A stretch of 12,209 bases of DNA from the IMG/VR virus record IMGVR_UViG_2531839468_000024, one strand, 5' to 3'. The notes under the pieces were generated by a model that was not told where the DNA came from, did no database searches, and saw nothing but the letters and a program-made list of their open reading frames with translations. Made by a program: the position numbers and the translations under genes. Numbering within the stretch: position 1 is the stretch's first letter; every line of letters starts with the position of its first letter. Origin of the DNA: a virus (lineage: Duplodnaviria; Heunggongvirae; Uroviricota; Caudoviricetes). Positions 1-12,209 of the stretch are shown piece after piece.

Positions 1-219
1 TGTTAATCCTACAATACCAAATAATGATAATACACCAATGACACTGACCGCGCCAAAGTATTTAAAGAAAATAGTTAATGATTCAACACTTATACCTTTC
101 CAATTTAAATAGCTTCTATAAGTATACAATTGCACAAAACACATGATAAAGAATAGGGGAAGGTATGACACTATAAATAGCGAAACTCTAGCACCTAAAT
201 GTAGTTTATTTACTCTCAT
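1..219 (-). CDS. Partial ORF (N-terminal fragment, continues past window start) encoding a strongly hydrophobic peptide; possible membrane protein
   Basis: Minus-strand frame open from ATG (reverse complement of 217-219) to position 1 with no stop; translation MRVNKLHLGARVSLFIVSYLPLFFIMCFVQLYTYRSYLNWKGISVESLTIFFKYFGAVSVIGVLSLFGIVGLT is hydrophobic; region is AT-rich. Not in the ORF track because it is unterminated in the window. Confidence 0.2.
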   Translation of the reverse strand, partial: MRVNKLHLGARVSLFIVSYLPLFFIMCFVQLYTYRSYLNWKGISVESLTIFFKYFGAVSVIGVLSLFGIVGLT

Positions 220-427
220 AACTACCCCACAGCCTACACGTCTAGTATTTTATGTTATTTCGAATAATTATGCATCAGATTACCATCCTACAATTGTGCA
301 TAAAACGAGCATTTTGCTGATTTTTCTGCGGATGCCTGAGACAGACAACCTCAAGCACCCGCAGCAATTTTACTTAACTCCCGCTACCTCGCCAATATGA
401 AATCAATAAGAAAGGTGCTCCATAAAA

Positions 428-1114
428 TCACTCCTTCTCTTCTTTATCGTAGTGGAGTTGACCAATTTTGATAAGAGGGCGTCCCTGAGATTTGCGGTGT
501 AGATTGGTATCGCGCAGAGAATACACACAGCCACAATATTCCTGCTGATAGAATTTTTCGCGCTTGCTGATTTCAATCATGCGGGACGAGCCGCCCTGCT
601 TGCGCCAGTTATAATCCCAGTACACCATGCCCGGATAATGCGCGACGGCTCGCCGCCCACAGTCGTTAACCTGCTGCATATTTTTCCAGCGTGAAATGCC
701 CAGTGAACTGCTGATCACACTGAAACCATTTTCAGCAGCGTACAGCGCTGTCCGCTCAAAACGCATGTCAAAACACATGGTACAACGGATCCCCCTCTCG
801 GGCTCCCATTCCATTCCTTTGGCACGTTCAAACCAGTTGTCTGTGTCGTAATCAGCATCAATAAATGGCACGCCGTGTTGTTCAGCAAAGCGAATATTCT
901 CATCCTTACGAATTAAATACTCTTTCTGAGGATGAATGTTCGGGTTGTAGAAAAAGATGGTATAGTCGATTCCCGAGGCCTGAAGCGCCTCCATCACTTC
1001 ACCGGAACATGGAGCACAGCAAGAGTGCAGTAGTAGTTTGTTTGCCCCGTTTGGGAGCTCCAATTTAGGCCGTTTGAAATCAGCAATAGTCATAAATATT
1101 TTTATTGGGGTCAT
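428..1114 (-). CDS. queH: DUF208 / QueH-like epoxyqueuosine reductase (Fe-S enzyme of queuosine tRNA modification)
   Basis: 228-aa ORF with [11 protein letters not shown] motif near the N-terminus plus later cysteines ([14 protein letters not shown]), as I recall for the QueH/DUF208 family. No clear Shine-Dalgarno for either candidate ATG (1114 or 1093). Confidence 0.55.
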
Positions 1115-1290
1115 GAAAATAGCACAGAGTGTAGCATCAGGGCTATCGGGAATAGATGTCTAAATCTGGTAATATCTGCTTTTGACGCAAAGCAGACAAC
1201 CACGCTAGCTCAATCCTGTGCCGTGAAAATGTCAATTCACATCTGAACTAATGCTCTTTAATCTAGTTACGTCTATAAATAACGAAAATT

Positions 1291-1689
1291 TCACTGATAA
1301 AATGCCAGTATGCGCTGCATAACTTCGCTCTTCCGGCACTCACAGCAAATTATGTTTTGGTGCCTGTCATAACGACGTATTTCTCCGTCAGGTAATGACC
1401 AGATAAGGTCCGGATCAACCACAGATGTTTTCTTCACCTTTGCCCTCGAGAGTTTTTTGCGGGCGTTTTGCCAGTCCTTACGAGCCTGTTCAGACGGGAA
1501 TAACCCGTAGCCAGAGTTATATACATCACCACTGGCAACCAGCTCTCTGGCGAGAACGCTCATCAGATATCTTGTCGCACCTGTCTTGGCTTCCAGTTGC
1601 CGTAACGTCTCGCGCCCACTCCGGCGTACTAGCTCAACAACCTGCCCCTTGATTTTTTCCCGCTCTTCTTGTGTAAAAACTTTTGCCAC
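1291..1689 (-). CDS. Hypothetical 132-aa protein downstream of the O-like replication gene
   Basis: GTG start preceded by a strong SD (AAGGGGGAC, reverse complement of 1692-1700); 40 bp downstream of the O-like stop, same strand. No family recognised. Confidence 0.5.
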   Translation of the reverse strand: MAKVFTQEEREKIKGQVVELVRRSGRETLRQLEAKTGATRYLMSVLARELVASGDVYNSGYGLFPSEQARKDWQNARKKLSRAKVKKTSVVDPDLIWSLPDGEIRRYDRHQNIICCECRKSEVMQRILAFYQ

Positions 1690-1729
1690 AAGTCCCCCTT
1701 AAAATTACCTCATGACCTGAAATCAAAAC

Positions 1730-2695
1730 TTATCCTCTGAAACCAGGCGGAATTTCTGTATCCGGTTCAGAAATATGATTAACACAACGCTGTACAGGTG
1801 AACGCCCCAGGCGGATGACCAGTTCGTCCCATTTTTCGCGGAGCTTTGACGGGCTCATGATGTTTTTTACCCAGAATGGATCCCGCTGTACCCGACCAAA
1901 CATTTCACAAATTTGTCTGTGGCTTCTGCCATCCAGCATCCGCATTGTGCGCACATCATTGGCCCAGACAGTCCAGTTAGGCTCTTTTGGTCGCATGATC
2001 TCGCCATCATCACTGGCGGCCTGTTCGTAGAGACCCACGATCCGCCCCCATATCCACTGCGCACACGCCAGATCCTCCTGGCTACCCCACTGGCGTTTTT
2101 TCGCACTAAACACAACTGCGCCAGGGTGCCGGATTAAAAAATCCTGTTCAGCCGTCTGCGGGTCCGGTTGCGAAGCTTCCGGACGAAAAGTGTTTTTATT
2201 CTCTGTAGTAATCTCTGTTGTATTCTCTGTAGGATCATCGGGCCATTTTGACCCGATGACATTGGGTCGTTTTGAACCAATGGAGCGTTTCATTTTGACC
2301 TCTTCCATCGTGTCATTTTGACCTGATGGAGCGGCGCATTTTGAACCGATGGATTCGCTCAATTTGCCATCATCTAAAAGCTCGCTCCCATAGTTAATCG
2401 TGTAGAAATTGGTCATATCGCGCTTTGATTTATTGAGCTTTTCACAACGCAAAAGCCCCAGCGTTTTCAGACTTGCAAACGCGCGCTTTAACGTTGACTC
2501 TGACCAGAATGGGAACTGTTCCAGCCATTGTTCCGTTGTGTTGTAAATCCAGCGAACACCATCACATTCCATGCCGGAATTGGTATCTCTCAACCAGTAA
2601 TGCAACTGCTGCAACACAATGGCTTCATTTAAGCCAATCTTCATCGCAAGCTGTGTGTTTATAACCAGTGGGCGTTCAGCAAAAAGAAGGCTCAT
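1730..2695 (-). CDS. Lambdoid replication initiator (O-like) with internal origin
   Basis: ORF track gives 1730-2749 (TTG start); I prefer the ATG at 2693-2695 (MSLLFAERPLVINTQLAMKIGLNEAIVLQQLHYWL...), giving a 321-aa product. The N-terminal region resembles replication-initiator DNA-binding domains; the iteron array lies inside the gene as in lambda O. Confidence 0.6.
   Translation of the reverse strand: MSLLFAERPLVINTQLAMKIGLNEAIVLQQLHYWLRDTNSGMECDGVRWIYNTTEQWLEQFPFWSESTLKRAFASLKTLGLLRCEKLNKSKRDMTNFYTINYGSELLDDGKLSESIGSKCAAPSGQNDTMEEVKMKRSIGSKRPNVIGSKWPDDPTENTTEITTENKNTFRPEASQPDPQTAEQDFLIRHPGAVVFSAKKRQWGSQEDLACAQWIWGRIVGLYEQAASDDGEIMRPKEPNWTVWANDVRTMRMLDGRSHRQICEMFGRVQRDPFWVKNIMSPSKLREKWDELVIRLGRSPVQRCVNHISEPDTEIPPGFRG
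2186..2233. repeat. AT-rich tract with three 11-12-bp direct repeats (ATTCTCTGTAG / AATCTCTGTTG / ATTCTCTGTAG) next to the iterons
   Basis: Repeats at 2198-2208, 2210-2220, 2222-2232. The tract lies downstream of the iterons in the coding direction of the O-like gene, matching the iteron-then-AT-rich layout of lambda ori. Confidence 0.5.
2244..2375. repeat. Iteron array: 5 good copies plus 1 degenerate copy of CATTTTGA(C/A)C-(N)-GATGG at 23-bp periodicity; putative replication origin
   Basis: Copies start at 2244, 2268, 2291, 2314, 2337 and (degenerate) 2360; read directly from the sequence. They encode a repetitive (S/V)IGSK linker in the O-like protein. Confidence 0.7.
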
Positions 2696-3197
2696 AATTC
2701 CATCCAGCTTTTTGTTGGTATTGCTGTCGATACGCAAGTTTGAAAGCAATTGCTTTTTCTATAAGTTCGTCAGTTTCACGATCCACTACGGCAGGATCAG
2801 CAAAAAGCAGTCCGGACTCCACCACATCGCCATATTCTTTGTTTAACCCGGCGATCATGTACGTGATGCTTTTTCCGTCACTAATTTCACGATGCAACCT
2901 GAAATCATTAATCCGGATAGCCTCCATAATTGCAGGCACTAGCGCCGTGAACTTTTCACGCTTATCCCTGGTGTCGATAGCCTTCCAGCGTTCGAATATC
3001 TTCACTCGATTAACGCCAAGCGCTCGCTGATCAACCGCGCCACCTTCATCTGTGACACGCTGAACATCGATGTTCGGGCGCTCTTTCAAAGCCCAGAATG
3101 CTTCAGTGATTAATATCGTCGCCTGCTCCTGTGTCATTCCTGGTCGACATATCCAGGCATCCAGAGCCTCACGAGCCTGTTCAGGAGTGATTTTCAT
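2676..3197 (-). CDS. Hypothetical 173-aa early protein at the CII position (possibly YdaT-like)
   Basis: ATG start at 3195-3197; overlaps the Cro-like gene stop by 17 nt and the O-like start by 20 nt, so it sits in a tightly packed rightward early operon. Family assignment is by position only. Confidence 0.45.
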   Translation of the reverse strand: MKITPEQAREALDAWICRPGMTQEQATILITEAFWALKERPNIDVQRVTDEGGAVDQRALGVNRVKIFERWKAIDTRDKREKFTALVPAIMEAIRINDFRLHREISDGKSITYMIAGLNKEYGDVVESGLLFADPAVVDRETDELIEKAIAFKLAYRQQYQQKAGWNYEPSFC

Positions 3198-3408
3198 TGT
3201 TCAACCGCCCCGCCCGCTTCGTCTTACGATATTCGTCATAAACCTTGGGATCATACAGAAGCTCGCCGCCAGATGCCTCCTGTAGACGCATCGCGCGACC
3301 TTCAGGAACCAGCTCTTGCCATTGAGAAACAGCAGATGGGTCAACGCCAGCAGCTTTCGCTACTTTGGCTTTCGTACCGTAAAAATTAATTACGTCTGAT
3401 TTAAACAT
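3181..3408 (-). CDS. dicC: Cro-like small DNA-binding protein (DicC/YdaS family)
   Basis: ORF track start at 3435 is TTG; the internal ATG at 3406-3408 has a strong SD (GGAGGT) and gives a 75-aa product, MFKSDVINFYGTKAKVAKAAGVDPSAVSQWQ..., with an HTH-like segment. Divergent from the repressor. Confidence 0.65.
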   Translation of the reverse strand: MFKSDVINFYGTKAKVAKAAGVDPSAVSQWQELVPEGRAMRLQEASGGELLYDPKVYDEYRKTKRAGRLNNENHS

Positions 3409-3485
3409 CGCACCTCCAATATTGAGTTTTCTCAATGCTAATCACTCAAGGAATCTCAAGTCAAGGGTTATTAAGATATCTAAAT
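3409..3485. promoter_or_regulatory. Divergent promoter/operator region between the Cro-like and repressor genes
   Basis: Inverted repeat ATTGAG-N4-CTCAAT at 3421-3436; further CTCAAG half-sites at 3445-3450 and 3455-3460. The core TTGAGTTTTCTCA recurs downstream of the repressor gene. Confidence 0.55.
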
Positions 3486-3893
3486 ATGAACGAGAAAACT
3501 TTAGGTCAACGCATTAGAGAAAGACGTAAGCAGGTAGGCTTAAGTCAAAACGGTTTAAGCAAAGCTGCTGGCGTATCTGGCTCATCAATTTCATTATGGG
3601 AAAGTGACCATACAGCCCCGCGCGGGCAAAATTTGCATCGCCTCGCCGAGGTATTGCAGTGTTCACCAACCTGGATACTGTTTGGCGACGAGGACAAAAC
3701 ACCAGCTCCCCCTGTTTCACTCGATAGTGCCTTAGACTTATCGGAAGATGAGTTAGAGATGCTGCGTTTGTATCGCGCACTTCCTAAATCAGAGCAACAA
3801 GCACAACTCAGCGAACTCCGCGCCCGCGTTGAGAATTTTAATCGCCTGTTCACCGAGCTATTAGAGGCTCGCAAACGCAACAAGCATCAATAA
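3486..3893 (+). CDS. dicA: DicA-like HTH (XRE-family) prophage repressor
   Basis: ATG at 3486 gives 135 aa. HTH near the N-terminus (QRIRERRKQVGLSQNGLSKAAGVSGSSISLWE) and a conserved VLQCSPTWILFGDEDK segment that I recall from Qin DicA. Weak or absent SD, consistent with a cI-like leaderless or weakly initiated message. Confidence 0.75.
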   Translation: MNEKTLGQRIRERRKQVGLSQNGLSKAAGVSGSSISLWESDHTAPRGQNLHRLAEVLQCSPTWILFGDEDKTPAPPVSLDSALDLSEDELEMLRLYRALPKSEQQAQLSELRARVENFNRLFTELLEARKRNKHQ

Positions 3894-3954
3894 TCATCCC
3901 TTCACAAAATTTTAAAGCCTTACATTTCAATGTATTGGCTTTATCTTGCGCCAA

Positions 3955-4016
3955 TGCTTGAGTTTTCTCATCAAAAAGCCTTGACGAAAAATAATGAGAA
4001 AACTAAATTACCTCCA
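3955..4016 (+). promoter_or_regulatory. Putative repressor-controlled promoter of the early-left (dicB-type) operon with two operator-like sites
   Basis: TTGAGTTTTCTCA at 3958-3970, identical to 3422-3434; inverted variant TGAGAAAACTAA at 3995-4006; candidate -35 TTGACG (3981-3986) and -10 TAAATT (4004-4009) with a 17-bp spacer. Confidence 0.5.
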
Positions 4017-4085
4017 TCAACACACCGCACGGTGTTCTCAGCAAACAGTTCCGCTACCCCGGCGTTAAGGGGAAATGAGGTCAGC

Positions 4086-4238
4086 ATGGATACTATCGAT
4101 CTTGGCAACAGCGAATCTCTGGTATGTGGCGTGTTCCCCAACCAGGACGGTACGTTCACCGCGATGACATATACCAAAAGCAAAACGTTTAAAACCGAAT
4201 CTGGCGCGCGTTGCTGGTTAGCCAGAAACACTGACTGA
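4086..4238 (+). CDS. ydfA: YdfA/YdaF-like (DUF1391) small protein
   Basis: The 102-aa ORF in the track is probably over-extended; the ATG at 4086 with SD GAGG (4077-4080) gives a 50-aa product, MDTIDLGNSESLVCGVFPNQDGTFTAMTYTKSKTFKTESGARCWLARNTD, matching the size and sequence character I recall for Qin YdfA / Rac YdaF. Confidence 0.6.
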   Translation: MDTIDLGNSESLVCGVFPNQDGTFTAMTYTKSKTFKTESGARCWLARNTD

Positions 4239-4249
4239 TGAGGCTGACG

Positions 4250-4615
4250 ATGGAATTTAAAGATTTACCGTCTGATGTACAGAAAACAGCAGCTCATACA
4301 TTGCATTCTGTGCTGCGAGAAATCGGGAAAGATATTGCAAGCGAGCCAGCAAAAGATCTGGCCCGGAAAATCAAGACCGCTTTCGTTGAGCTTTATAATG
4401 TTGGCACTGACTCTGAAACTGTCGAGACCAAGACCGTAAGTTCACCAATATTCTCACTTGAGCCAGGCGTATTATCAGGTGAAATATGCACCGAGATTTC
4501 CAGCGAACTGCTTCCGGTAATACGAGAAGCAATTTGCCGTCGCGGTTTGGATGGAAGTTACGATCATGACGTCCTGCAAGTTCTCAGGACAATGGTGACT
4601 TCACTGGGGATTTGA
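4250..4615 (+). CDS. Hypothetical 121-aa protein (position of ydfB/ydfC in Qin)
   Basis: ATG at 4250 with SD GAGG (4240-4243); the ORF track begins at 4238, overlapping the previous stop. No family recognised. Confidence 0.5.
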   Translation: MEFKDLPSDVQKTAAHTLHSVLREIGKDIASEPAKDLARKIKTAFVELYNVGTDSETVETKTVSSPIFSLEPGVLSGEICTEISSELLPVIREAICRRGLDGSYDHDVLQVLRTMVTSLGI

Positions 4616-4696
4616 TCCCTGCGTCCTCTAACCCGAGTTGTCAGGTTGACCATACGCTTAAGTGACAACCCCGCTGCAACGCCCTCTGTTATCAAT

Positions 4697-4754
4697 TTTC
4701 TGGTGACGTTTGGCGGTATCAGTTTTACTCCGTGACTGCTCTGCCGCCGTTTTT
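4697..4754 (+). ncRNA. dicF: DicF-like small regulatory RNA (ftsZ-targeting sRNA of dicB operons)
   Basis: TTTCTGGTGACGTTTGGCGGTATCAGTTTTACTCCGTGACTGCTCTGCCGCCG followed by a T-run (4750-4754); this matches DicF as I recall it, and it sits in a roughly 300-bp non-coding gap just upstream of the DicB-like ORF. No covariance-model search was possible. Confidence 0.65.
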
Positions 4755-4923
4755 AAAGTGAATTTTGTGATGCGGTGAATGCGGCTAAGCGCACGCGGAA
4801 CAGTTAAAACCAAAAACAGTGTTATGGGTAGATTCTCTGTATCCGGCGTTAATTGTTAACTGGTTAACGTCACCTGGAGGCACCAGGCACTGCATCACAA
4901 AATTCATTGTTGAGGACGCGATA

Positions 4924-5112
4924 ATGAAAACGTTATTACCAAACGTTAATACGTCTGAAGGTTGTTTTGAAATTGGTGTCACTATCAGTAACCCTGTATT
5001 TACTGAAGATGCCATTAACAAGAGAAAACAAGAACGGGAGCTATTAAATAAAATATGCATTGTTTCAATGCTGGCTCGTTTACGTCTGATGCCAAAAGGA
5101 TGTGCACAATGA
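4924..5112 (+). CDS. dicB: DicB-like cell-division inhibitor (62 aa)
   Basis: ATG at 4924 with SD GAGGA (4911-4915); 62-aa product MKTLLPNVNTSEGCFEIGVTISNPVF...; size, position after the DicF-like RNA and sequence match my recollection of Qin DicB. The 97-aa ORF in the track is an upstream over-extension. Confidence 0.75.
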   Translation: MKTLLPNVNTSEGCFEIGVTISNPVFTEDAINKRKQERELLNKICIVSMLARLRLMPKGCAQ

Positions 5113-5300
5113 ATTCAGCATTTGCGCTTGTTCTGACAGTTTTTCTTGTTTCCGGAGAGCCAGTTGATATTGCAGTCAGTGTTCACAGGACAATGCAGGA
5201 GTGTATGACTGCAGCAACCGAACAGAAAATTCCCGGTAACTGTTACCCGGTCGATAAAGTTATTCACCAGGATAATATCGAAATCCCGGCAAGTCTTTAA
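5109..5300 (+). CDS. ydfD: YdfD-like small membrane (lysis-type) protein (63 aa)
   Basis: ATG at 5109 overlaps the dicB stop (ATGA coupling, 5109-5112); N-terminal hydrophobic segment SAFALVLTVFLVSG; 63 aa as for Qin YdfD. Confidence 0.65.
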   Translation: MNSAFALVLTVFLVSGEPVDIAVSVHRTMQECMTAATEQKIPGNCYPVDKVIHQDNIEIPASL

Positions 5301-5393
5301 AACAGTTCCGTAATAAATATCCGGTTTCATTCTTATATGCCAGCAATGGCAGGGATTTGTTCATCCTTAAATCTGTCATGAGGTTAAAACAAA

Positions 5394-7864
5394 ATGAGTA
5401 AAGTCTTTATTTGCGCCGCTATTCCTGACGAACTGGCAACAAGGGAAGAAGGCGCTGTGGCTGTAGCCACAGCCATTGAAGCTGGCGACGAACGCCGTGC
5501 TCGAGCAAAATTTCACTGGCAGTTCCTGGAACATTATCCGGCTGCTCAGGACTGCGCTTATAAATTTATTGTCTGCGAGGATAAACCTGGCATACCCCGC
5601 CCTGCCCTCGATTCATGGGATGCTGAATATATGCAGGAAAACCGCTGGGATGAGGAGTCTGCTTCTTTTGTCCCGGTTGAGACTGAATCCGATCCGATGA
5701 ACGTCACTTTTGACAAGCTGGCCCCTGAAGTACAGAACGCTGTCATGGTTAAGTTCGACACATGTGAAAACATCACCGTTGATATGGTTATTAGCGCACA
5801 GGAATTGTTGCAGGAAGACATGGCAACATTCGACGGACATATCGTTGAAGCGTTGATGAAAATGCCAGAAGTTAACGCCATGTATCCGGAGCTTAAGTTG
5901 CACGCCATTGGGTGGGTTAAGCATAAATGTATTCCTGGTGCTAAATGGCCCGAAATTCAGGCAGAGATGCGCATCTGGAAAAAACGTCGCGAAGGTGAAC
6001 GCAAGGAAACCGGAAAATACACGTCTGTTGTTGATCTCGCCCGCGCCAGAGCCAATCAACAGTACACTGAAAATTCAACAGGAAAAATCAGCCCGGTCAT
6101 TGCTGCCATTCATCGCGAATACAAGCAGACATGGAAAACACTGGATGACGAACTGGCCTACGCTCTCTGGCCTGGTGATGTGGATGCCGGAAACATTGAC
6201 GGCAGCATCCATCGCTGGGCAAAAAAGAAGTTATCGACAACGACCGCGAAGACTGGAAGCGTATCTCGGCATCAATGCGCAAACAGCCTGATGCCCTTCG
6301 CTACGACCGCCAGACTATTTTTGGCCTTGTCCGTGAGCGTCCGATCGACATTCACAAAGATCCCATAGCACTGAACAAATATATCTGCGAATACCTGACG
6401 ACAAAGGGCGTGTTTGAGAGTGAAGAAACAGACCTGGGCACTGTTGATGTTCTCCAGTCATCAGAAACACAAACTGATGCAGTGGAAACTGAGGTATCTG
6501 ATATCCCAAAAAATGAAACCGCGCCGGAAGCTGAACCATCTGTAGAGCGTGAGGGGCCGTTCTATTTCCTCTTCGCAGATAAGGACGGAGAAAAATACGG
6601 TCGCGCAAACAAACTTTCTGGTCTGGATAAGGCACTGGCTGCTGGCGCCACTGAAATCACAAAAGAAGAATATTTTGCCCGAAAAAATGGCACATACACG
6701 GGCTTACCGCAAAATGTAGATACCGCTGAAGATTCAGAACAACCAGAGCCGATAAAAGTTACCGCTGACGAAGTAAACAAAATTATGCAGGCAGCCAATA
6801 TCAGCCAGCCTGACGCCGATAAGTTGCTTGCTGCATCACGTGGTGAATTTGTTGAAGGGATTAGTGACCCGAATGATCCGAAATGGGTTAAGGGGATCCA
6901 GACCCGCGATTCTGTGAACCAGAACCAGCATGAATCGGAACGGAACTACCAAAAAGCGGAACAAAACAGCACAAATGCGTTACAAAACGAGCCAGAAACG
7001 AAACAGCCTGAACCAGTGGCGCAACAGGAAGTGGAAAAAGTCTGCACCGCCTGCGGTCAGACCGGCGGCGGCAACTGCCCTGATTGTGGCGCGGTGATGG
7101 GCGACGCAACATACCAAGAAACATTCGATGAAGAGTATCAGGTTGAAGTTCAGGAAGATGATCCGGAGGAAATGGAAGGCGCTGAACATCCACACAAGGA
7201 GAACACTGGCGGCAATCAGCATCACAATAGCGATAATGAAACTGGCGAGACGGCAGATCACTCAATTAAGGTGAACGGTCATCACGAAATCACATCCACC
7301 AGCAGGACGTGTGACCATCTAATGATCGACCTTGAAACCATGGGAAAAAATCCTGATGCCCCGATCATCTCAATAGGTGCAATATTTTTCGATCCGCAAA
7401 CCGGAGATATGGGACCGGAATTTAGTAAGACTATCGATCTGGAAACTGCTGGCGGAGTCATTGATCGGGACACCATTAAATGGTGGCTTAAGCAATCACG
7501 CGAAGCGCAATCTGCCATTATGACCGATGAAATCCCGTTAGATGATGCACTGTTACAATTGCGGGAATTTATCGACGAAAACTCCGGTGAATTTTTTGTT
7601 CAGGTTTGGGGAAATGGAGCCAACTTCGACAACACGATTTTGCGCCGTTCATACGAACGGCAGGGGATCCCCTGCCCGTGGCGTTACTACAACGATCGCG
7701 ATGTACGCACAATCGTTGAGCTGGGGAAAGCCATAGACTTCGATGCCAGAACGGCTATTCCATTCGAAGGTGAGCGCCATAATGCACTTGATGACGCCCG
7801 TTACCAGGCAAAATACGTTTCAGTTATCTGGCAAAAACTGATCCCGAGTCAGGCTGATTCTTAA
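5394..7864 (+). pseudogene. YdfE-like large early protein (about 820 aa if fused): unknown N-terminal region, acidic linker, C4 zinc-ribbon-like motif and C-terminal DEDDh (DnaQ-like) 3'-5' exonuclease domain; reading frame broken near 6221-6227
   Basis: Two overlapping ORFs (5394-6368 and 6275-7864); the second frame is open from 6200, and one added base in the A6 run (6221-6226) joins them. Exo motifs: DLET (about 7327-7338), NGANFDNTIL, HNALDDARYQAKY. CTACGQTGGGNCPDCG at about 7045-7092. Confidence 0.65.
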
Positions 7865-7875
7865 TGTTCAACTGT

Positions 7876-7907
7876 CGCCGGTTGTGACTGGTATTCTGCA
7901 ACCGGCG
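7876..7907 (+). other. Stem-loop (9-bp stem CGCCGGTTG / CAACCGGCG, 14-nt loop) just after the exonuclease stop
   Basis: Perfect inverted repeat 7876-7884 / 7899-7907; no following T-tract, so not a canonical intrinsic terminator. Confidence 0.3.
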
Positions 7908-7936
7908 CTCGTCTGATGTAAGAGATAAAGAAATCG

Positions 7937-8065
7937 ATGAGCGAAGTAATCATGATTGTCTCTCCCGGCAAATGGGTATCCGAAGAGCAGTTAATTGCGC
8001 TGAAAGGAATAAAAAAAGGTACGTTAAAAAAGGCCCGGGAAAAATCGTTTATGGAAGGAAGGGAA
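7937..8065 (+). pseudogene. Excisionase-like small gene, 5' fragment (interrupted by IS66-family insertion)
   Basis: ORF reads MSEVIMIVSPGKWVSEEQLIALKGIKKGTLKKAREKSFMEGRE up to the IS boundary at 8066; the same frame resumes after the IS (10773 onward) to a stop at 10893-10895. Confidence 0.5.
8058..8065. repeat. Target-site duplication, left copy (GAAGGGAA)
   Basis: Identical 8-mer directly flanks both IS ends (8058-8065 and 10765-10772). Confidence 0.85.
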
Positions 8066-8148
8066 GTAACCGGCTCATTTAAACCGTCTGGTCTGTTTCC
8101 TCCGGCTCTACAAAAATAATGTCCATCATTTTTAATGGACACTATCGT

Positions 8149-8331
8149 ATGAAACACCGGACCTGGATCACTGAAGCTTTACGTCTTCACTTTGAAGAAC
8201 ATTTACCCCGGGTTGTGGCCGGGCGTCGCCTGAGTGTACCAAAATCAACAGTTTGTAGTATGTTCGTGCGCTTTCGGAGAGCTGGCCTTTCGGTGGCCTT
8301 TGCCCGCAGGCATGTCGGAGCAGGAACTTGA
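8149..8331 (+). CDS. IS-internal upstream ORF of unknown role (HTH-like basic peptide)
   Basis: ATG at 8149 (the track begins at 8119); MKHRTWITEALRLHFEEHLPRVVAGRRLSVPKSTV...; its stop overlaps an ATG at 8331 (TGATG). May be an accessory ORF or chance ORF within the IS left arm. Confidence 0.25.
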   Translation: MKHRTWITEALRLHFEEHLPRVVAGRRLSVPKSTVCSMFVRFRRAGLSVAFARRHVGAGT

Positions 8332-8461
8332 TGCCTGCCTATACGGACAATTTTTCCACGGTACCAGTCGTACGTCCTGAAAGCACCGTTATATCCGAAG
8401 CCCCCGAGGTAAAAAACGTCCCCGGCGGCCCAACTTCCCTTATGAGTTTAAAATCGCCTTA

Positions 8462-8797
8462 GTGGAGCAGTCACTACAGCCCGGAGCCTGTGTGGCGCAG
8501 ATCGCCCGGGAAAACGGAATCAACGATAACCTGCTCTTCAACTGGCGCCATCAATACCGGAAAGGTGGCCTGCTGCCTTCCGGAGAAAATATGCCGGCAC
8601 TGCTTCCCGTGACGTTAACGCCGGAGCCGGATAATAAAATCCCGGCCCCCGCACAGGAACCAGAGCAGATAAATACACCGTCCGACAGTCTGTGTTGTGA
8701 GCTGGTTCTGCCGGCCGGAACTCTCAGGCTTAAAGGTAAACTGACGCCGGCGTTATTACAGACACTTATCCGCGAAATAAAAGGGAGCAGCCACTGA
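8462..8797 (+). CDS. tnpA: IS66-family TnpA (orf1); conserved coding appears to extend upstream of the first in-frame start
   Basis: The first standard start in frame is GTG at 8462, but the same frame is open from 8381 and encodes KKRPRRPNFPYEFKIALVEQSLQPGACVAQIARENGINDNLLFNWRHQYRKG, matching the RRR-x-S-x-EFK...LF-WR-Q pattern I recall for IS66 TnpA. Confidence 0.6.
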   Translation: MEQSLQPGACVAQIARENGINDNLLFNWRHQYRKGGLLPSGENMPALLPVTLTPEPDNKIPAPAQEPEQINTPSDSLCCELVLPAGTLRLKGKLTPALLQTLIREIKGSSH

Positions 8798-9144
8798 TGA
8801 TATCTCTCCCTGCAGGTTCGCGTATCTGGCTGGTTGCAGGTATCACCGATATGCGAAATGGCTTTAACGGCCTGGCATCAAAAGTTCAGAACGTCCTGAA
8901 GGATGACCCGTTCTCCGGACACCTGTTCATCTTCCGCGGACGCCGGGGTGACCAGATAAAAGTGTTGTGGGCTGACAGTGACGGACTGTGCCTCTTCACC
9001 AAACGCCTGGAGCGGGGCCGCTTCGTCTGGCCAGTCACCCGTGACGGCAAGGTGCACCTTACTCCGGCTCAGTTATCCATGCTTCTTGAAGGTATCAACT
9101 GGAAGCACCCGAAACGAACGGAACGCGCTGGAATCCGCATATAA
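8797..9144 (+). CDS. tnpB: IS66-family TnpB (orf2)
   Basis: 115 aa, MISLPAGSRIWLVAGITDMRNGFNGLA...GHLFIFRGRRGDQIKVLWADSDGLCLFTKRLERGRF, the characteristic IS66 orf2 sequence; start overlaps the tnpA stop. Confidence 0.85.
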   Translation: MISLPAGSRIWLVAGITDMRNGFNGLASKVQNVLKDDPFSGHLFIFRGRRGDQIKVLWADSDGLCLFTKRLERGRFVWPVTRDGKVHLTPAQLSMLLEGINWKHPKRTERAGIRI

Positions 9145-9163
9145 CCCGTTGTAAAGTGAGGAT

Positions 9164-10734
9164 ATGGACACCTCACTTGCTCATGAGAACGCCCGCCTGC
9201 GGGCACTGTTGCAGACGCAACAGGACACCATCCGCCAGATGGCTGAATACAACCGCCTGCTCTCACAGCGGGTGGCGGCTTATGCTTCCGAAATCAACCG
9301 GCTGAAGGCGCTGGTTGCGAAACTGCAACGTATGCAGTTCGGTAAAAGCTCAGAAAAACTTCGTGCAAAAACCGAACGGCAGATACAGGAAGCACAGGAG
9401 CGAATCAGCGCACTTCAGGAAGAAATGGCGGAAACGCTGGGTGAGCAATATGACCCGGTACTGCCATCCGCCCTGCGCCAGTCTTCAGCCCGTAAACCGT
9501 TACCGGCCTCACTTCCCCGTGAAACCCGGGTTATCCGGCCGGAAGAGGAATGCTGTCCTGCCTGTGGTGGTGAACTCAGTTCTCTGGGATGTGATGTGTC
9601 AGAGCAACTGGAGCTTATCAGCAGCGCCTTTAAGGTTATCGAAACACAACGTCCGAAACAGGCCTGTTGCCGGTGCGACCATATCGTGCAGGCACCAGTA
9701 CCTTCAAAACCCATTGCACGCAGTTATGCCGGAGCGGGGCTTCTGGCCCATGTTGTCACCGGGAAATATGCAGACCATCTGCCGTTATACCGCCAGTCAG
9801 AAATATACCGTCGTCAGGGAGTGGAGCTGAGCCGTGCCACACTGGGGCGCTGGACAGGTGCTGTTGCTGAACTGCTGGAGCCGCTGTATGACGTCCTGCG
9901 CCAGTATGTGCTGATGCCCGGTAAAGTCCATGCTGATGATATCCCCGTCCCGGTCCAGGAGCCGGGCAGCGGTAAAACCCGGACAGCCCGGCTGTGGGTC
10001 TACGTCCGTGATGACCGTAACGCCGGTTCACAGATGCCCCCGGCGGTCTGGTTCGCGTACAGTCCGGACCGGAAAGGTATCCATCCACAAAATCACCTGG
10101 CCGGTTACAGCGGTGTGCTTCAGGCCGATGCTTACGGTGGTTACCGGGCGTTATACGAATCCGGCAGAATAACGGAAGCCGCGTGTATGGCTCATGCCCG
10201 GAGAAAATCCACGATGTGCATGCAAGAGCGCCCACCTACATCACCACGGAAGCCCTGCAGCGTATCGGTGAACTGTATGCCATCGAGGCAGAGGTCCGGG
10301 GCTGTTCAGCAGAACAGCGTCTGGCGGCAAGAAAAGCCAGAGCCGCGCCACTGATGCAGTCACTGTATGACTGGATACAGCAACAGATGAAAACACTGTC
10401 GCGTCACTCAGATACGGCAAAAGCGTTCGCATACCTGCTGAAACAGTGGGATGCACTGAACGTGTACTGCAGTAATGGCTGGGTGGAAATCGACAACAAC
10501 ATCGCAGAGAACGCCTTACGGGGAGTGGCCGTAGGCCGGAAAAACTGGATGTTCGCGGGTTCCGACAGCGGTGGTGAACATGCGGCGGTGTTGTACTCGC
10601 TGATCGGCACATGCCGTCTGAACAATGTGGAGCCAGAAAAGTGGCTGCGTTACGTCATTGAACATATCCAGGACTGGCCGGCAAACCGGGTACGCGATCT
10701 GTTGCCCTGGAAAGTTGATCTGAGCTCTCAGTAA
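9164..10734 (+). pseudogene. tnpC: IS66-family TnpC transposase, frameshifted (two ORFs, 9164-10354 and 10183-10734)
   Basis: N-terminal coiled-coil/leucine-zipper-like region, CPACGG zinc-finger motif, then ...[11 protein letters not shown] in one frame continuing as IHDVHA... in the next; one added base near 10208 would restore a single reading frame of about 520 aa. Confidence 0.8.
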
Positions 10735-10764
10735 ATATCAATACGGTTCTGACGAGTCGCTTAC

Positions 10765-10772
10765 GAAGGGAA
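10765..10772. repeat. Target-site duplication, right copy (GAAGGGAA)
   Basis: Identical to 8058-8065; directly abuts the IS right end. Confidence 0.85.
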
Positions 10773-10895
10773 TATAAGCATGTCGCTCATGACGGTATGC
10801 CATGGGATAACAGTCCATGCTTTTACAACCTGGAAGAAATTGATCGCTGGATTGAGCGCCAGGCATCAGCGAGACCAAGACGTCATCTTACTTGA
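10765..10895 (+). pseudogene. Excisionase-like small gene, 3' fragment
   Basis: Frame open across the IS right boundary: ...YKHVAHDGMPWDNSPCFYNLEEIDRWIERQASARPRRHLT stop. The C-terminal EEIDRWIE resembles the W-x-EID-x-W tail of AlpA/Xis-type proteins. Joining the fragments with a single copy of the duplication gives an 83-aa protein. Confidence 0.5.
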
Positions 10896-10929
10896 CTAAA
10901 AGCCACACTAACTAATGAGAGAAGTTGAA

Positions 10930-12209
10930 ATGAAATATCCGACAGGCGTGGAAAACCATGGAGGGAAATTACGTATCTGGTTTGTTTATAAAGGCGTAAG
11001 AGTCAGGGAAAATCTGGGGGTTCCTGACACAGCAAAAAACAGGCACGTTGCAGGTGAACTACGCTCCTCTGTTTGTTACGCAATAAAAACTGGTGTTTTC
11101 GACTATGCAAAACAGTTTCCCTCCTCACGCAATCTGGAAAAATTTGGTGAGGCCCGACAAGATTTAACCATAAAAGAACTGGCTGAAAAATTTCTGGCAC
11201 TGAAAGAAACTGAAGTCGCCAAAACATCACTCAACACATACCGTGCCGTCATCAAAAATATCCTGAGCATAATCGGTGAAAAAAATCTTGCCTCATCGAT
11301 TAATAAAGAAAAATTACTGGAGGTTCGTAAAGAGCTACTGACTGGATACCAGATCCCCAAAAGTAACTATATTGTTACACAACCAGGGAGATCGGCTGTA
11401 ACTGTAAATAATTACATGACAAATCTTAACGCCGTGTTCCAGTTTGGTGTTGATAACGGTTACCTGCCAGATAATCCGTTTAAGGGGATCTCGCCATTAA
11501 AGGAATCAAGAACCATTCCGGATCCTCTTTCGCGGGAGGAATTTATCCGTCTTATCGATGCGTGCAGAAATCAGCAAGCAAAAAATATATGGTGTGTTTC
11601 TGTTTATACTGGCGTTCGCCCTGGTGAGCTGTGTGCACTTGGATGGGAGGACATAGATCTGAAAAATGGAACAATGATGATCAGGAGAAATTTAGCAAAA
11701 GACCGTTTCACGGTACCAAAAACACAGGCGGGAACCAATCGGGTCATTCATCTTATTAAGCCAGCAATCGACGCTCTCCGGAGTCAGATGACATTAACGA
11801 GACTGAGCAAAGAGCATATCATTGATGTTCACCTCAGAGAGTATGGCAGAACAGAAAAACAAAAATGCACCTTTGTTTTTCAACCTGAAGTGTCAGCGAG
11901 AGTAAAAATTATGGTGACCATTTTACCGTTGACTCAATAAGGCAGATGTGGGACGCAGCGATAAAACGTGCCGGACTCCGCCATCGAAAATCATATCAGT
12001 CGAGACATACTTATGCCTGCTGGTCGCTGACAGCTGGTGCTAACCCGGCATTTATAGCAAACCAGATGGGCCATGCAGATGCGCAAATGGTATTTCAGGT
12101 ATACGGAAAATGGATGTCTGAAAACAATAATGCACAGGTAGCTTTGTTAAATACACAGTTAAGCGAGTTTGCCCCAACCATGCCCCATAACGAAGCAATG
12201 AAAAATTAA
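10930..12209 (+). pseudogene. int: Lambda-family tyrosine integrase, frame broken at an A5 run (11904-11908)
   Basis: Two ORFs (10915-11940 and 11946-12209); the downstream frame is open from 11889 and carries the catalytic HxxR (SRHTYA), second His (GHAD) and Tyr (VYGKW) region; the N-terminus PTGVE...LRIWFVYKGVRVRE is typical of lambdoid integrases. Confidence 0.8.

Follow-up and report, generated by a model that had tools for sequence, protein, structure and literature searches.

The stretch of DNA analysed here, called the window throughout, is a 12,209-nucleotide (nt) sequence from a virus (Caudoviricetes; IMG/VR record IMGVR_UViG_2531839468_000024) and is a Qin/mEp460-type lambdoid prophage. 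At positions 5394 to 7864, on the plus strand and just ahead of the excisionase (xis) and integrase (int) genes, lie two overlapping open reading frames (ORFs), 5394..6368 (324 amino acids, aa) and 6275..7864 (529 aa), the second in the -1 frame relative to the first. We found that these are one gene, the 'exonuclease' of Qin/mEp460-type lambdoid prophages, interrupted in this copy at a run of six A (A6). It is a very common Escherichia coli prophage gene, and its product resembles RecE, except that a DexA-type 3'-5' nuclease stands where RecE has its own. The parts of the gene and of its predicted product are listed below; residues 1-443 were modelled with AlphaFold2 (AF2; mean predicted local distance difference test score, pLDDT, 82).

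5394..6227, plus strand: gene part 1, codons 1-278, in frame 0 and continuing out of frame to a stop at 6368; residues 1-278 are those of WP_085004590.1
5394..5681, plus strand: domain 1, small alpha/beta, residues 1-96, probably corresponding approximately to Pfam YdfE_N (PF27430)
5706..6071, plus strand: domain 2, helical, residues 105-226 in the AF2 model, probably corresponding approximately to Pfam YdfE_C (PF27432)
6126..6412, plus strand: domain 3, helical, residues 245-340, homologous to a non-catalytic part of RecE, pLDDT > 90; it holds the frameshift
6221..6226, plus strand: the frame-breaking A6 run, A7 in nearly all other copies; frame 0 reads A_AAA_AAG
6227..7864, plus strand: gene part 2, codons 279-823 and the stop, in the -1 frame; identical to residues 279-823 of WP_085004590.1
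6554..6697, plus strand: domain 4, small beta/alpha, residues 388-435 in the AF2 model, with the motif GPFY...GRANK
6821..6850, plus strand: motif KLLAASRGEF, common with RecE
7043..7087, plus strand: Cys4 motif CTACGQTGGGNCPDC, CxxC-x7-CxxC (C551, C554, C562, C565), a putative zinc ribbon
7088..7315, plus strand: acidic linker, predicted to be disordered (pLDDT ~30)
7316..7831, plus strand: DEDDh 3'-5' exonuclease domain, residues 642-813 (Pfam PF16473), with catalytic D646, E648, D746, H796 and D801

The A6 run at 6221-6226 is the sole homopolymer A-run in the overlap of the two ORFs, and its context in the first frame is TGG GCA AAA AAG AAG. Inserting one A at the run, or reading base 6227 twice, gives a single uninterrupted ORF of 823 codons. 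After this repair the product and the RefSeq protein WP_085004590.1 ("exonuclease", E. coli FDAARGOS_1277) agree at all 823 aa (100% identity). Identity to the HannyBb phage exonuclease is 99.5%, and the repaired product matches the PHROG 2082 'exonuclease' profile (823 positions) from end to end (1827.8 bits, residues 1-822 against positions 1-822). An earlier reading made from the letters alone (hereafter the sequence-only reading) had joined the two frames into one gene of about 820 aa split at the A-run, which agrees with the exact length found here. The gene is already known: besides the annotated RefSeq protein, it has its own PHROG (2082) and the Pfam domains YdfE_N and YdfE_C. The sequence-only reading had suggested that the window copy may be a more complete copy of an unstudied protein; this does not stand, as the window copy is the broken one, and thousands of genomes, as well as phages, have annotated intact copies. 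That reading was right that the K-12 counterpart, ydfE (b1577), is a truncated fragment. In the Qin cryptic prophage of K-12 the same gene occupies the same prophage site, in the order dicB-ydfD-ydfE, as a 921-nt pseudogene in which approximately the first 255 codons precede IS2E, whereas the window copy is full length with a 1-nt deletion. In the searchable literature we found no papers on this DEDDh protein under ydfE, under Rv2179c together with prophage, or under RecE together with DEDDh.

To gauge how common the gene is, the 2471-nt region was compared by megablast with 5426 complete E. coli genomes, with a threshold of at least 80% of the region covered. By this measure the gene is present in approximately 3537 of the 5426 genomes, about two thirds, at a median of two places per genome. 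The best listed matches all span 2472 nt, against 2471 nt in the window, and are annotated 'exonuclease' or '3'-5' exonuclease'; many RefSeq copies are named '3'-5' exoribonuclease'. The full-length gene is also present in 17 phage records, including HannyBb, PhiR42_1, Tritos and mEp460.

The C-terminal domain matches Pfam PF16473 (Rv2179c-like) with an E value of 2.3e-67 and 226.5 bits against a cut-off of 27, covering model positions 2-177 of 177, a match well outside what chance would give. The three Exo motifs named in the sequence-only reading are all in place: DLET (residues 646-649, nt 7328-7339), NGANFDNTIL (residues 741-750, nt 7613-7642) and HNALDDARYQAKY (residues 796-808, nt 7778-7816). 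The domain is thus, as had been proposed, of the DEDDh 3'-5' exonuclease kind, and both families to which that reading had pointed were matched, Rv2179c-like at the E value given above and RNase_T weakly. When the domain is aligned with DexA of phage T4 and with five stand-alone homologues from enterobacteria, the residues D646, E648, D746, H796 and D801 are invariant. The AF2 model of the domain (pLDDT ~80-94) has a DnaQ-like fold; in Foldseek its first match is DexA (8KEL, E 8.9e-11), followed by RNase T and the oligoribonucleases (Orn), and DexA (8KEL/8KEN) is also the sole protein whose PDB sequences were matched (E 9e-7). With all five catalytic residues present, the domain is, judged from its sequence, a catalytically intact DEDDh exonuclease, and the product, as a member of PF16473 and PHROG 2082, is predicted to work like a DexA-type exonuclease.

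DexA (exonuclease A) is a 3'-5' DNA exonuclease (PMC12153337). It is the closest solved structure to our domain, and its five DEDDh catalytic residues align with those found here, but it is a stand-alone enzyme of 227 aa with extra loops, and the two share 26% identity. Rv2179c of Mycobacterium tuberculosis, the namesake of PF16473, belongs to the same Pfam family, but is a bacterial exoribonuclease that stands alone; among PDB sequences there was no phmmer match to it at E <= 0.01, and the relationship is therefore distant. Stand-alone versions of the same DEDDh domain, 180-191 aa long and with 57-90% identity, are also present in Salmonella, Klebsiella, Citrobacter, Enterobacter and E. coli (proteins P0239, P0250, P0266-P0268, P0273 and P0285-P0332). 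Since such versions exist in many enterobacteria, this nuclease seems to circulate both alone and fused to the N-terminal domains, which we refer to as the platform.

Upstream of the nuclease domain the protein resembles RecE (exodeoxyribonuclease VIII, Rac-type). Residues 246-625 match the NCBIfam RecE model NF007259 with an E value of 5.9e-84 over positions 271-602 of the 877 in the model; at 282.7 bits, the match falls far short of the equivalog cut-off of 1269 bits. By BLASTP, residues 262-625 are 40% identical to residues 278-591 of an 866-aa RecE, and the stretch of 148 aa at residues 474-621 is 74% identical to the RecE of Rac-SA53. Within this homologous middle the two proteins share the KLLAASRGEF motif, the acidic linker and the Cys4 ribbon, which hardly differs in the RecE proteins of E. 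coli. Both kinds of protein have the ribbon in Escherichia only, more distant relatives being without it, and the AF2 confidence at this position is low. The sequence-only reading had noticed the ribbon, giving its spacing as CxxC-x9-CxxC, which should be x7, and had rightly described the linker as acidic and disordered: residues 554-641 contain 21 D+E against 3 K+R, and pLDDT in the linker is ~30.

The homology to RecE stops at residue 625 (RecE 591), approximately 15 residues short of the catalytic domain. Because the non-catalytic region is homologous and the homology ends before the catalytic domain, the protein is best described, at the level of sequence, as a RecE-type scaffold that carries a DEDDh 3'-5' nuclease instead of the PD-(D/E)XK 5'-3' nuclease. 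It is not a RecE equivalog, as it scores below the cut-off and lacks both a PD-(D/E)XK domain and a neighbouring RecT. The first ~245 residues (YdfE_N/YdfE_C) also differ from K-12-type RecE. In its place on the genome the gene again resembles recE, both lying at the end of the early-left operon before xis and int, but recT is not adjacent here and xis and int follow directly, in the window as in intact phages and prophages, whereas recE and recT are adjacent in Rac-type phages. The sequence-only reading had stated that the nuclease fold differs from the lambda-exonuclease-like fold of RecE, which is correct for the catalytic domain, but it had missed the homology over residues 246-625.

In the AF2 model the four domains N-terminal to the ribbon are separated by disordered linkers. 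The GPFY...GRANK motif of domain 4 is kept in many distant relatives and is absent from K-12-type RecE. The N-terminal domains gave no informative structural match. Selection was assessed in one pairwise comparison with the mEp460 allele, in which the ratio of nonsynonymous to synonymous substitution rates (dN/dS) is 0.28 overall, 0.08 for residues 1-226, 0.27 for residues 245-435, 0.52 for residues 436-641 (linker and ribbon) and 0.11 for the DEDDh domain. These values indicate that both ends of the protein are under purifying selection in a viable phage.

Relatives of the N-terminal part were collected by an exhaustive HMMER search with residues 1-278, which yielded 100 representative proteins, and the long ones were classified by the domains of this protein and of RecE. 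The platform, consisting of YdfE_N plus the middle region, is joined to three kinds of C-terminus. The first is the DEDDh domain (e.g., P0122 and P0123), and the second is a RecE-type nuclease (P0144, P0191 and P0193), which in P0144 is Pfam DUF3799, PDDEXK-like. The largest group has a domain of ~275 aa with the motif KKSLTDAxKKALSxLGFSAD, for which there was no significant sequence match in Pfam, NCBIfam or PDB. Its best weak Pfam match in 8 of 12 members of this sister clade was Rad52_Rad22, below threshold (best E 0.0026), and an hhalign comparison with human RAD52, for which a provisional sequence was used, aligned 98 collinear columns (E 0.022, probability 2%). The ~275-aa domain is a probable Rad52-like annealase. 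One protein with this domain, P0334 of Kosakonia, also occupies the early-left slot, between kilR and xis-int. Because it is fused to either a RecE-type nuclease or a probable Rad52-like annealase, the platform appears to be tied to recombination functions. The sister clade (proteins P0125-P0215) is represented in a Kosakonia sacchari prophage, at positions 6001-8412 of that prophage's own sequence, with the same YdfE_N/YdfE_C platform; PHROGs label proteins of this clade 'exonuclease' (phrog_2489 and phrog_7838), which may be a mis-annotation.

A wider reading of this pattern, which we put forward as speculative and rather doubtful, is that YdfE_N/YdfE_C and the RecE middle form a recombination 'hub' that is portable and to which lambdoid phages attach one of three effectors, namely a Rad52-like annealase, a nuclease of the 5'-3' PD-(D/E)XK kind as in RecE, or one of the 3'-5' DEDDh kind. 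If this were true, the DEDDh version would be an uncharacterised single-protein system that processes DNA ends with a polarity opposite to that of all known phage recombination exonucleases, perhaps working with host RecA or RecFOR, or hiding 3' ends from host sensors, and comparing the three versions would make the function of the RecE N-terminus directly testable. The N-terminal part of RecE has no known function, although linear-linear recombineering makes use of the full-length protein (PMC11611040). As a gene this one is ordinary and the window copy a damaged example of it; its value lies in the architecture, as such natural domain swaps offer a comparative handle on the N-terminal region of RecE. 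The enzyme is also a widespread and uncharacterised phage protein that could readily be cloned from phages of the mEp460 type and is possibly relevant to recombineering or to phage-host conflict.

The setting of the gene bears on its role. The neighbouring features in the window are as follows.

minus strand: QueH, DUF977, replication protein O and a YdaT/CII-like gene
3435-3893, plus strand: DicA-like repressor, followed by ydfA (plus strand)
4698-4749, plus strand: DicF small RNA, full length (Rfam RF00039, 72.5 bits)
4924-5112, plus strand: dicB (Pfam DicB)
about 5109-5300, plus strand: ydfD/DUF1482 gene (Pfam DUF1482)
7937..8065, plus strand: 5' part of the excisionase gene (Pfam DUF1233; by comparison with an intact xis), cut by the IS66-family element
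8066-10764: IS66-family insertion sequence (IS), ISCro1-like, inside the excisionase gene, leaving xis fragments at 7937-8065 and 10765-10895
10915..11940 / 11946.., plus strand: integrase, downstream of the IS66-family element

As DicF lies upstream of dicB and ydfD/DUF1482, this is the dicB operon of a Qin-like prophage, and the exonuclease comes last in the early-left operon that DicA represses (dicF-dicB-ydfD-exonuclease), just ahead of xis-int. Annotated relatives keep the order dicB-ydfD-exonuclease-xis-int. The slot next to xis is the recombination-module slot that recE-recT hold in Rac.

We favour, with moderate confidence, the reading that the protein is a DNA-end-processing 3'-5' exonuclease of the phage recombination/replication module that acts after induction or infection. 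It would be expressed at that stage from the DicA-repressed early-left operon, its DEDDh domain would degrade DNA 3' ends, and the RecE-like platform would tether the nuclease to DNA or to protein partners. The degradation of DNA 3' ends is suggested by the analogy with DexA and by the recombination-type partners of the platform, and a role in recombination is favoured because the gene occupies the slot that holds the recombination genes in lambdoid phages. The uncertainty is mainly about the biological role and less about what the protein is.

Several observations weigh against this assignment. A 3'-5' polarity gives no 3' tails for annealing of the RecT/Red-beta type. No annealase gene was found in the operon in the window, nor in the stretches of HannyBb and mEp460 that were examined. 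The sequence-only reading had likewise noted that no annealase partner is present in the window, and from this and the difference in fold it had argued that the protein is unlikely to be a classical recombination exonuclease; the first premise holds, in intact phages as well, but the argument is weakened because only the catalytic domain differs from RecE. In addition, Pfam PF16473 is named after an exoribonuclease, which makes RNA a possible substrate, and DEDDh nucleases carried on mobile elements act in anti-phage defence, as with EcD (PMC12153337) and the TONDOs (PMC13344964). Since the N-terminal domains gave no informative structural match, 'platform' is a description rather than a mechanism, and the Rad52-like assignment of the sister-clade domain comes from sub-threshold matches (best E 0.0026; hhalign probability 2%). 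Finally, no biochemical or genetic data on this protein were found in the searchable literature.

Among the alternatives, the one that survives best, although we consider it unlikely, is that the protein is a superinfection-exclusion or defence nuclease, which would degrade either the modified DNA of incoming phages, as EcD/'HREX' does, or the 3' ends of RNA phages, as TONDOs do, with its N-terminal domains as an auxiliary or targeting module. EcD, an E. coli DexA homologue (GenBank HAK9828821.1), degrades 5-hydroxymethylcytosine (5hmC)-containing DNA and protects against T4 (PMC12153337). It is, like our protein, an E. coli-encoded member of the DexA/Rv2179c DEDDh family, and its plasmid-borne expression made E. 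coli resistant to T4. TONDO/ISG20-like defence exonucleases also combine a DEDDh domain with an auxiliary domain of unknown function and are carried on mobile elements, prophages and plasmids among them, where they defend against RNA phages (PMC13344964). Moreover, most E. coli genomes retain the gene, frequently within prophages that are defective. By contrast, its place in a repressor-controlled early-left operon is not the position of a moron expressed in the lysogen, it is readily lost by IS insertion or frameshift in cryptic prophages, and PADLOC gave no match. The TONDOs were found as ISG20 homologues and act on the 3' untranslated regions of RNA phages, and the paper describing them (PMC13344964) makes no mention of this family, of DexA or of Rv2179c.

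The comparison with EcD also speaks against a defence nuclease of that type. The primers used for EcD encode a protein that starts with MIDTET... and ends with ...TIPETY, whereas the window protein has MIDLET... and ...IPSQADS at the corresponding places, and EcD, as cloned, begins at the DEDDh domain. None of the 120 closest homologues carries the EcD termini, and the identity of the two proteins was therefore rejected; a scan of viral contigs for EcD with 20-mers gave a chance hit only. The DexA residues reported to recognise 5hmC, W152 and D169 (PMC12153337), align with Y and A here, and the tetramer residue D90, whose loss would be expected of an HREX/EcD-type enzyme, is retained as D; at 26% identity the position of D169 is uncertain.

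Rather improbable, in our view, is a counter-defence enzyme whose DEDDh domain would destroy cyclic or linear signalling oligonucleotides, or retron multicopy single-stranded DNA, early in infection. The sequence-only reading had raised the degradation of signalling oligonucleotides, for which we found no support, the nearest characterised relatives being the DNA exonucleases T4 DexA and E. coli EcD (PMC12153337). The early expression and the operon shared with the host-directed dicB and dicF would fit such an enzyme, as would the presence of the oligoribonucleases Orn and REXO2, which degrade dinucleotides of the pGpG type, among the structural neighbours. Both by sequence and by fold, however, the closest relatives are DexA and RNase T and not Orn, no known anti-defence family was matched, and the linkage of the platform to the RecE nuclease and a probable annealase points to DNA recombination.

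We give similarly low credence to an RNA exonuclease like Rv2179c that would trim RNA 3' ends, for example those of DicF, of phage early transcripts or of host RNAs. The annotation of the Pfam family as 3'-5' exoribonuclease, a name that many RefSeq copies also bear, and co-transcription with the small RNA DicF are consistent with this role, but DexA, the closest relative that has been both characterised and solved, degrades DNA (PMC12153337), and DNA is also favoured by the scaffold derived from RecE and by the recombination-type partners that the platform has.

The state of the gene in the window is a separate matter. In a census of the A6 run with a 69-nt probe centred on it, the probe matched exactly as A6 in 14 of 3570 records, and the other matches listed span 70 nt, that is, the uninterrupted A7 form (99.6% of records). 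The Prokaryotic Genome Annotation Pipeline (PGAP) flags the gene as 'frameshifted', a pseudogene call, in the three A6 genomes inspected. Phage mEp460 has AAAAAAT (K-N), in frame, at the run, and distant homologues encode K-T-E or K-R-E there, so that a frameshift arrangement conserved among homologues, as at dnaX-type sites, was not found. The frame-0 GCA AAA AAG of the window copy does contain the heptamer A_AAA_AAG, which in the zero frame is intrinsically slippery, as at dnaX-type sites. Folding of the 73 nt at 6228-6300 gave -17.6 kcal/mol, with a z-score of -0.73 against shuffles, and hence no stimulatory RNA structure downstream, and the frameshift falls within the confidently folded domain at residues 245-340. 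Because the run is not conserved, no downstream structure was found and the break lies inside a folded domain, the A6 frameshift is a lesion and not programmed. That the split is functional, either as two separately expressed genes or as a programmed -1 frameshift (dnaX-like) giving short and long products, is very improbable, and was rejected on the distribution of the allele (14 of 3570), the non-conserved run and the lack of downstream structure, even though the heptamer is a classic one, a -1 slip restores the wild-type protein exactly and the allele is present in several unrelated prophage backgrounds; similar homopolymer indels in neighbouring window genes point instead to decay or sequencing error.

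Translation of the A6 copy would yield residues 1-278 and then 46 residues that are out of frame. If a minority of ribosomes slipped by -1 on A_AAA_AAG, they would make exactly the normal protein, and therefore the A6 allele could be leaky.

As to its origin, the lesion may be a mutation by decay or an error made in sequencing the homopolymer. Positions 1..7900 of the window differ from FDAARGOS_1277 by 4 substitutions, one 99-nt indel and the single A, and all but the last fall within positions 1-5393, which contain zero 1-nt indels. Further downstream, a comparison with E. coli E7 revealed five more 1-nt indels (8292, 8351, 8410, 10203 and 11903), which hit the IS66 tnpA, the IS66 transposase and the integrase; four of these five lie in A or T runs, a pattern typical of homopolymer miscalls. 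Against a miscall stands the recurrence of this A6 allele in several assemblies and in different prophage backgrounds.

The 99-nt length difference lies near 5095, between dicB and ydfD, and reflects an extra partial DUF1482 copy in FDAARGOS_1277. The tnpA, transposase (9164..10354 / 10183..10734) and int (10915..11940 / 11946..) genes are all split in the window, by either homopolymer sequencing error or general decay of this end of the prophage. The IS66-family insertion in xis has a target duplication of 8 bp, GAAGGGAA. In E. coli E7 this xis gene is likewise interrupted by the same IS, approximately 40 nt further downstream, and the two insertions look independent. At the opposite end of the window, a QueH-like gene (epoxyqueuosine reductase, DUF208) at 428-1114 on the minus strand, named QueH according to RefSeq in relatives, adjoins the replication genes.

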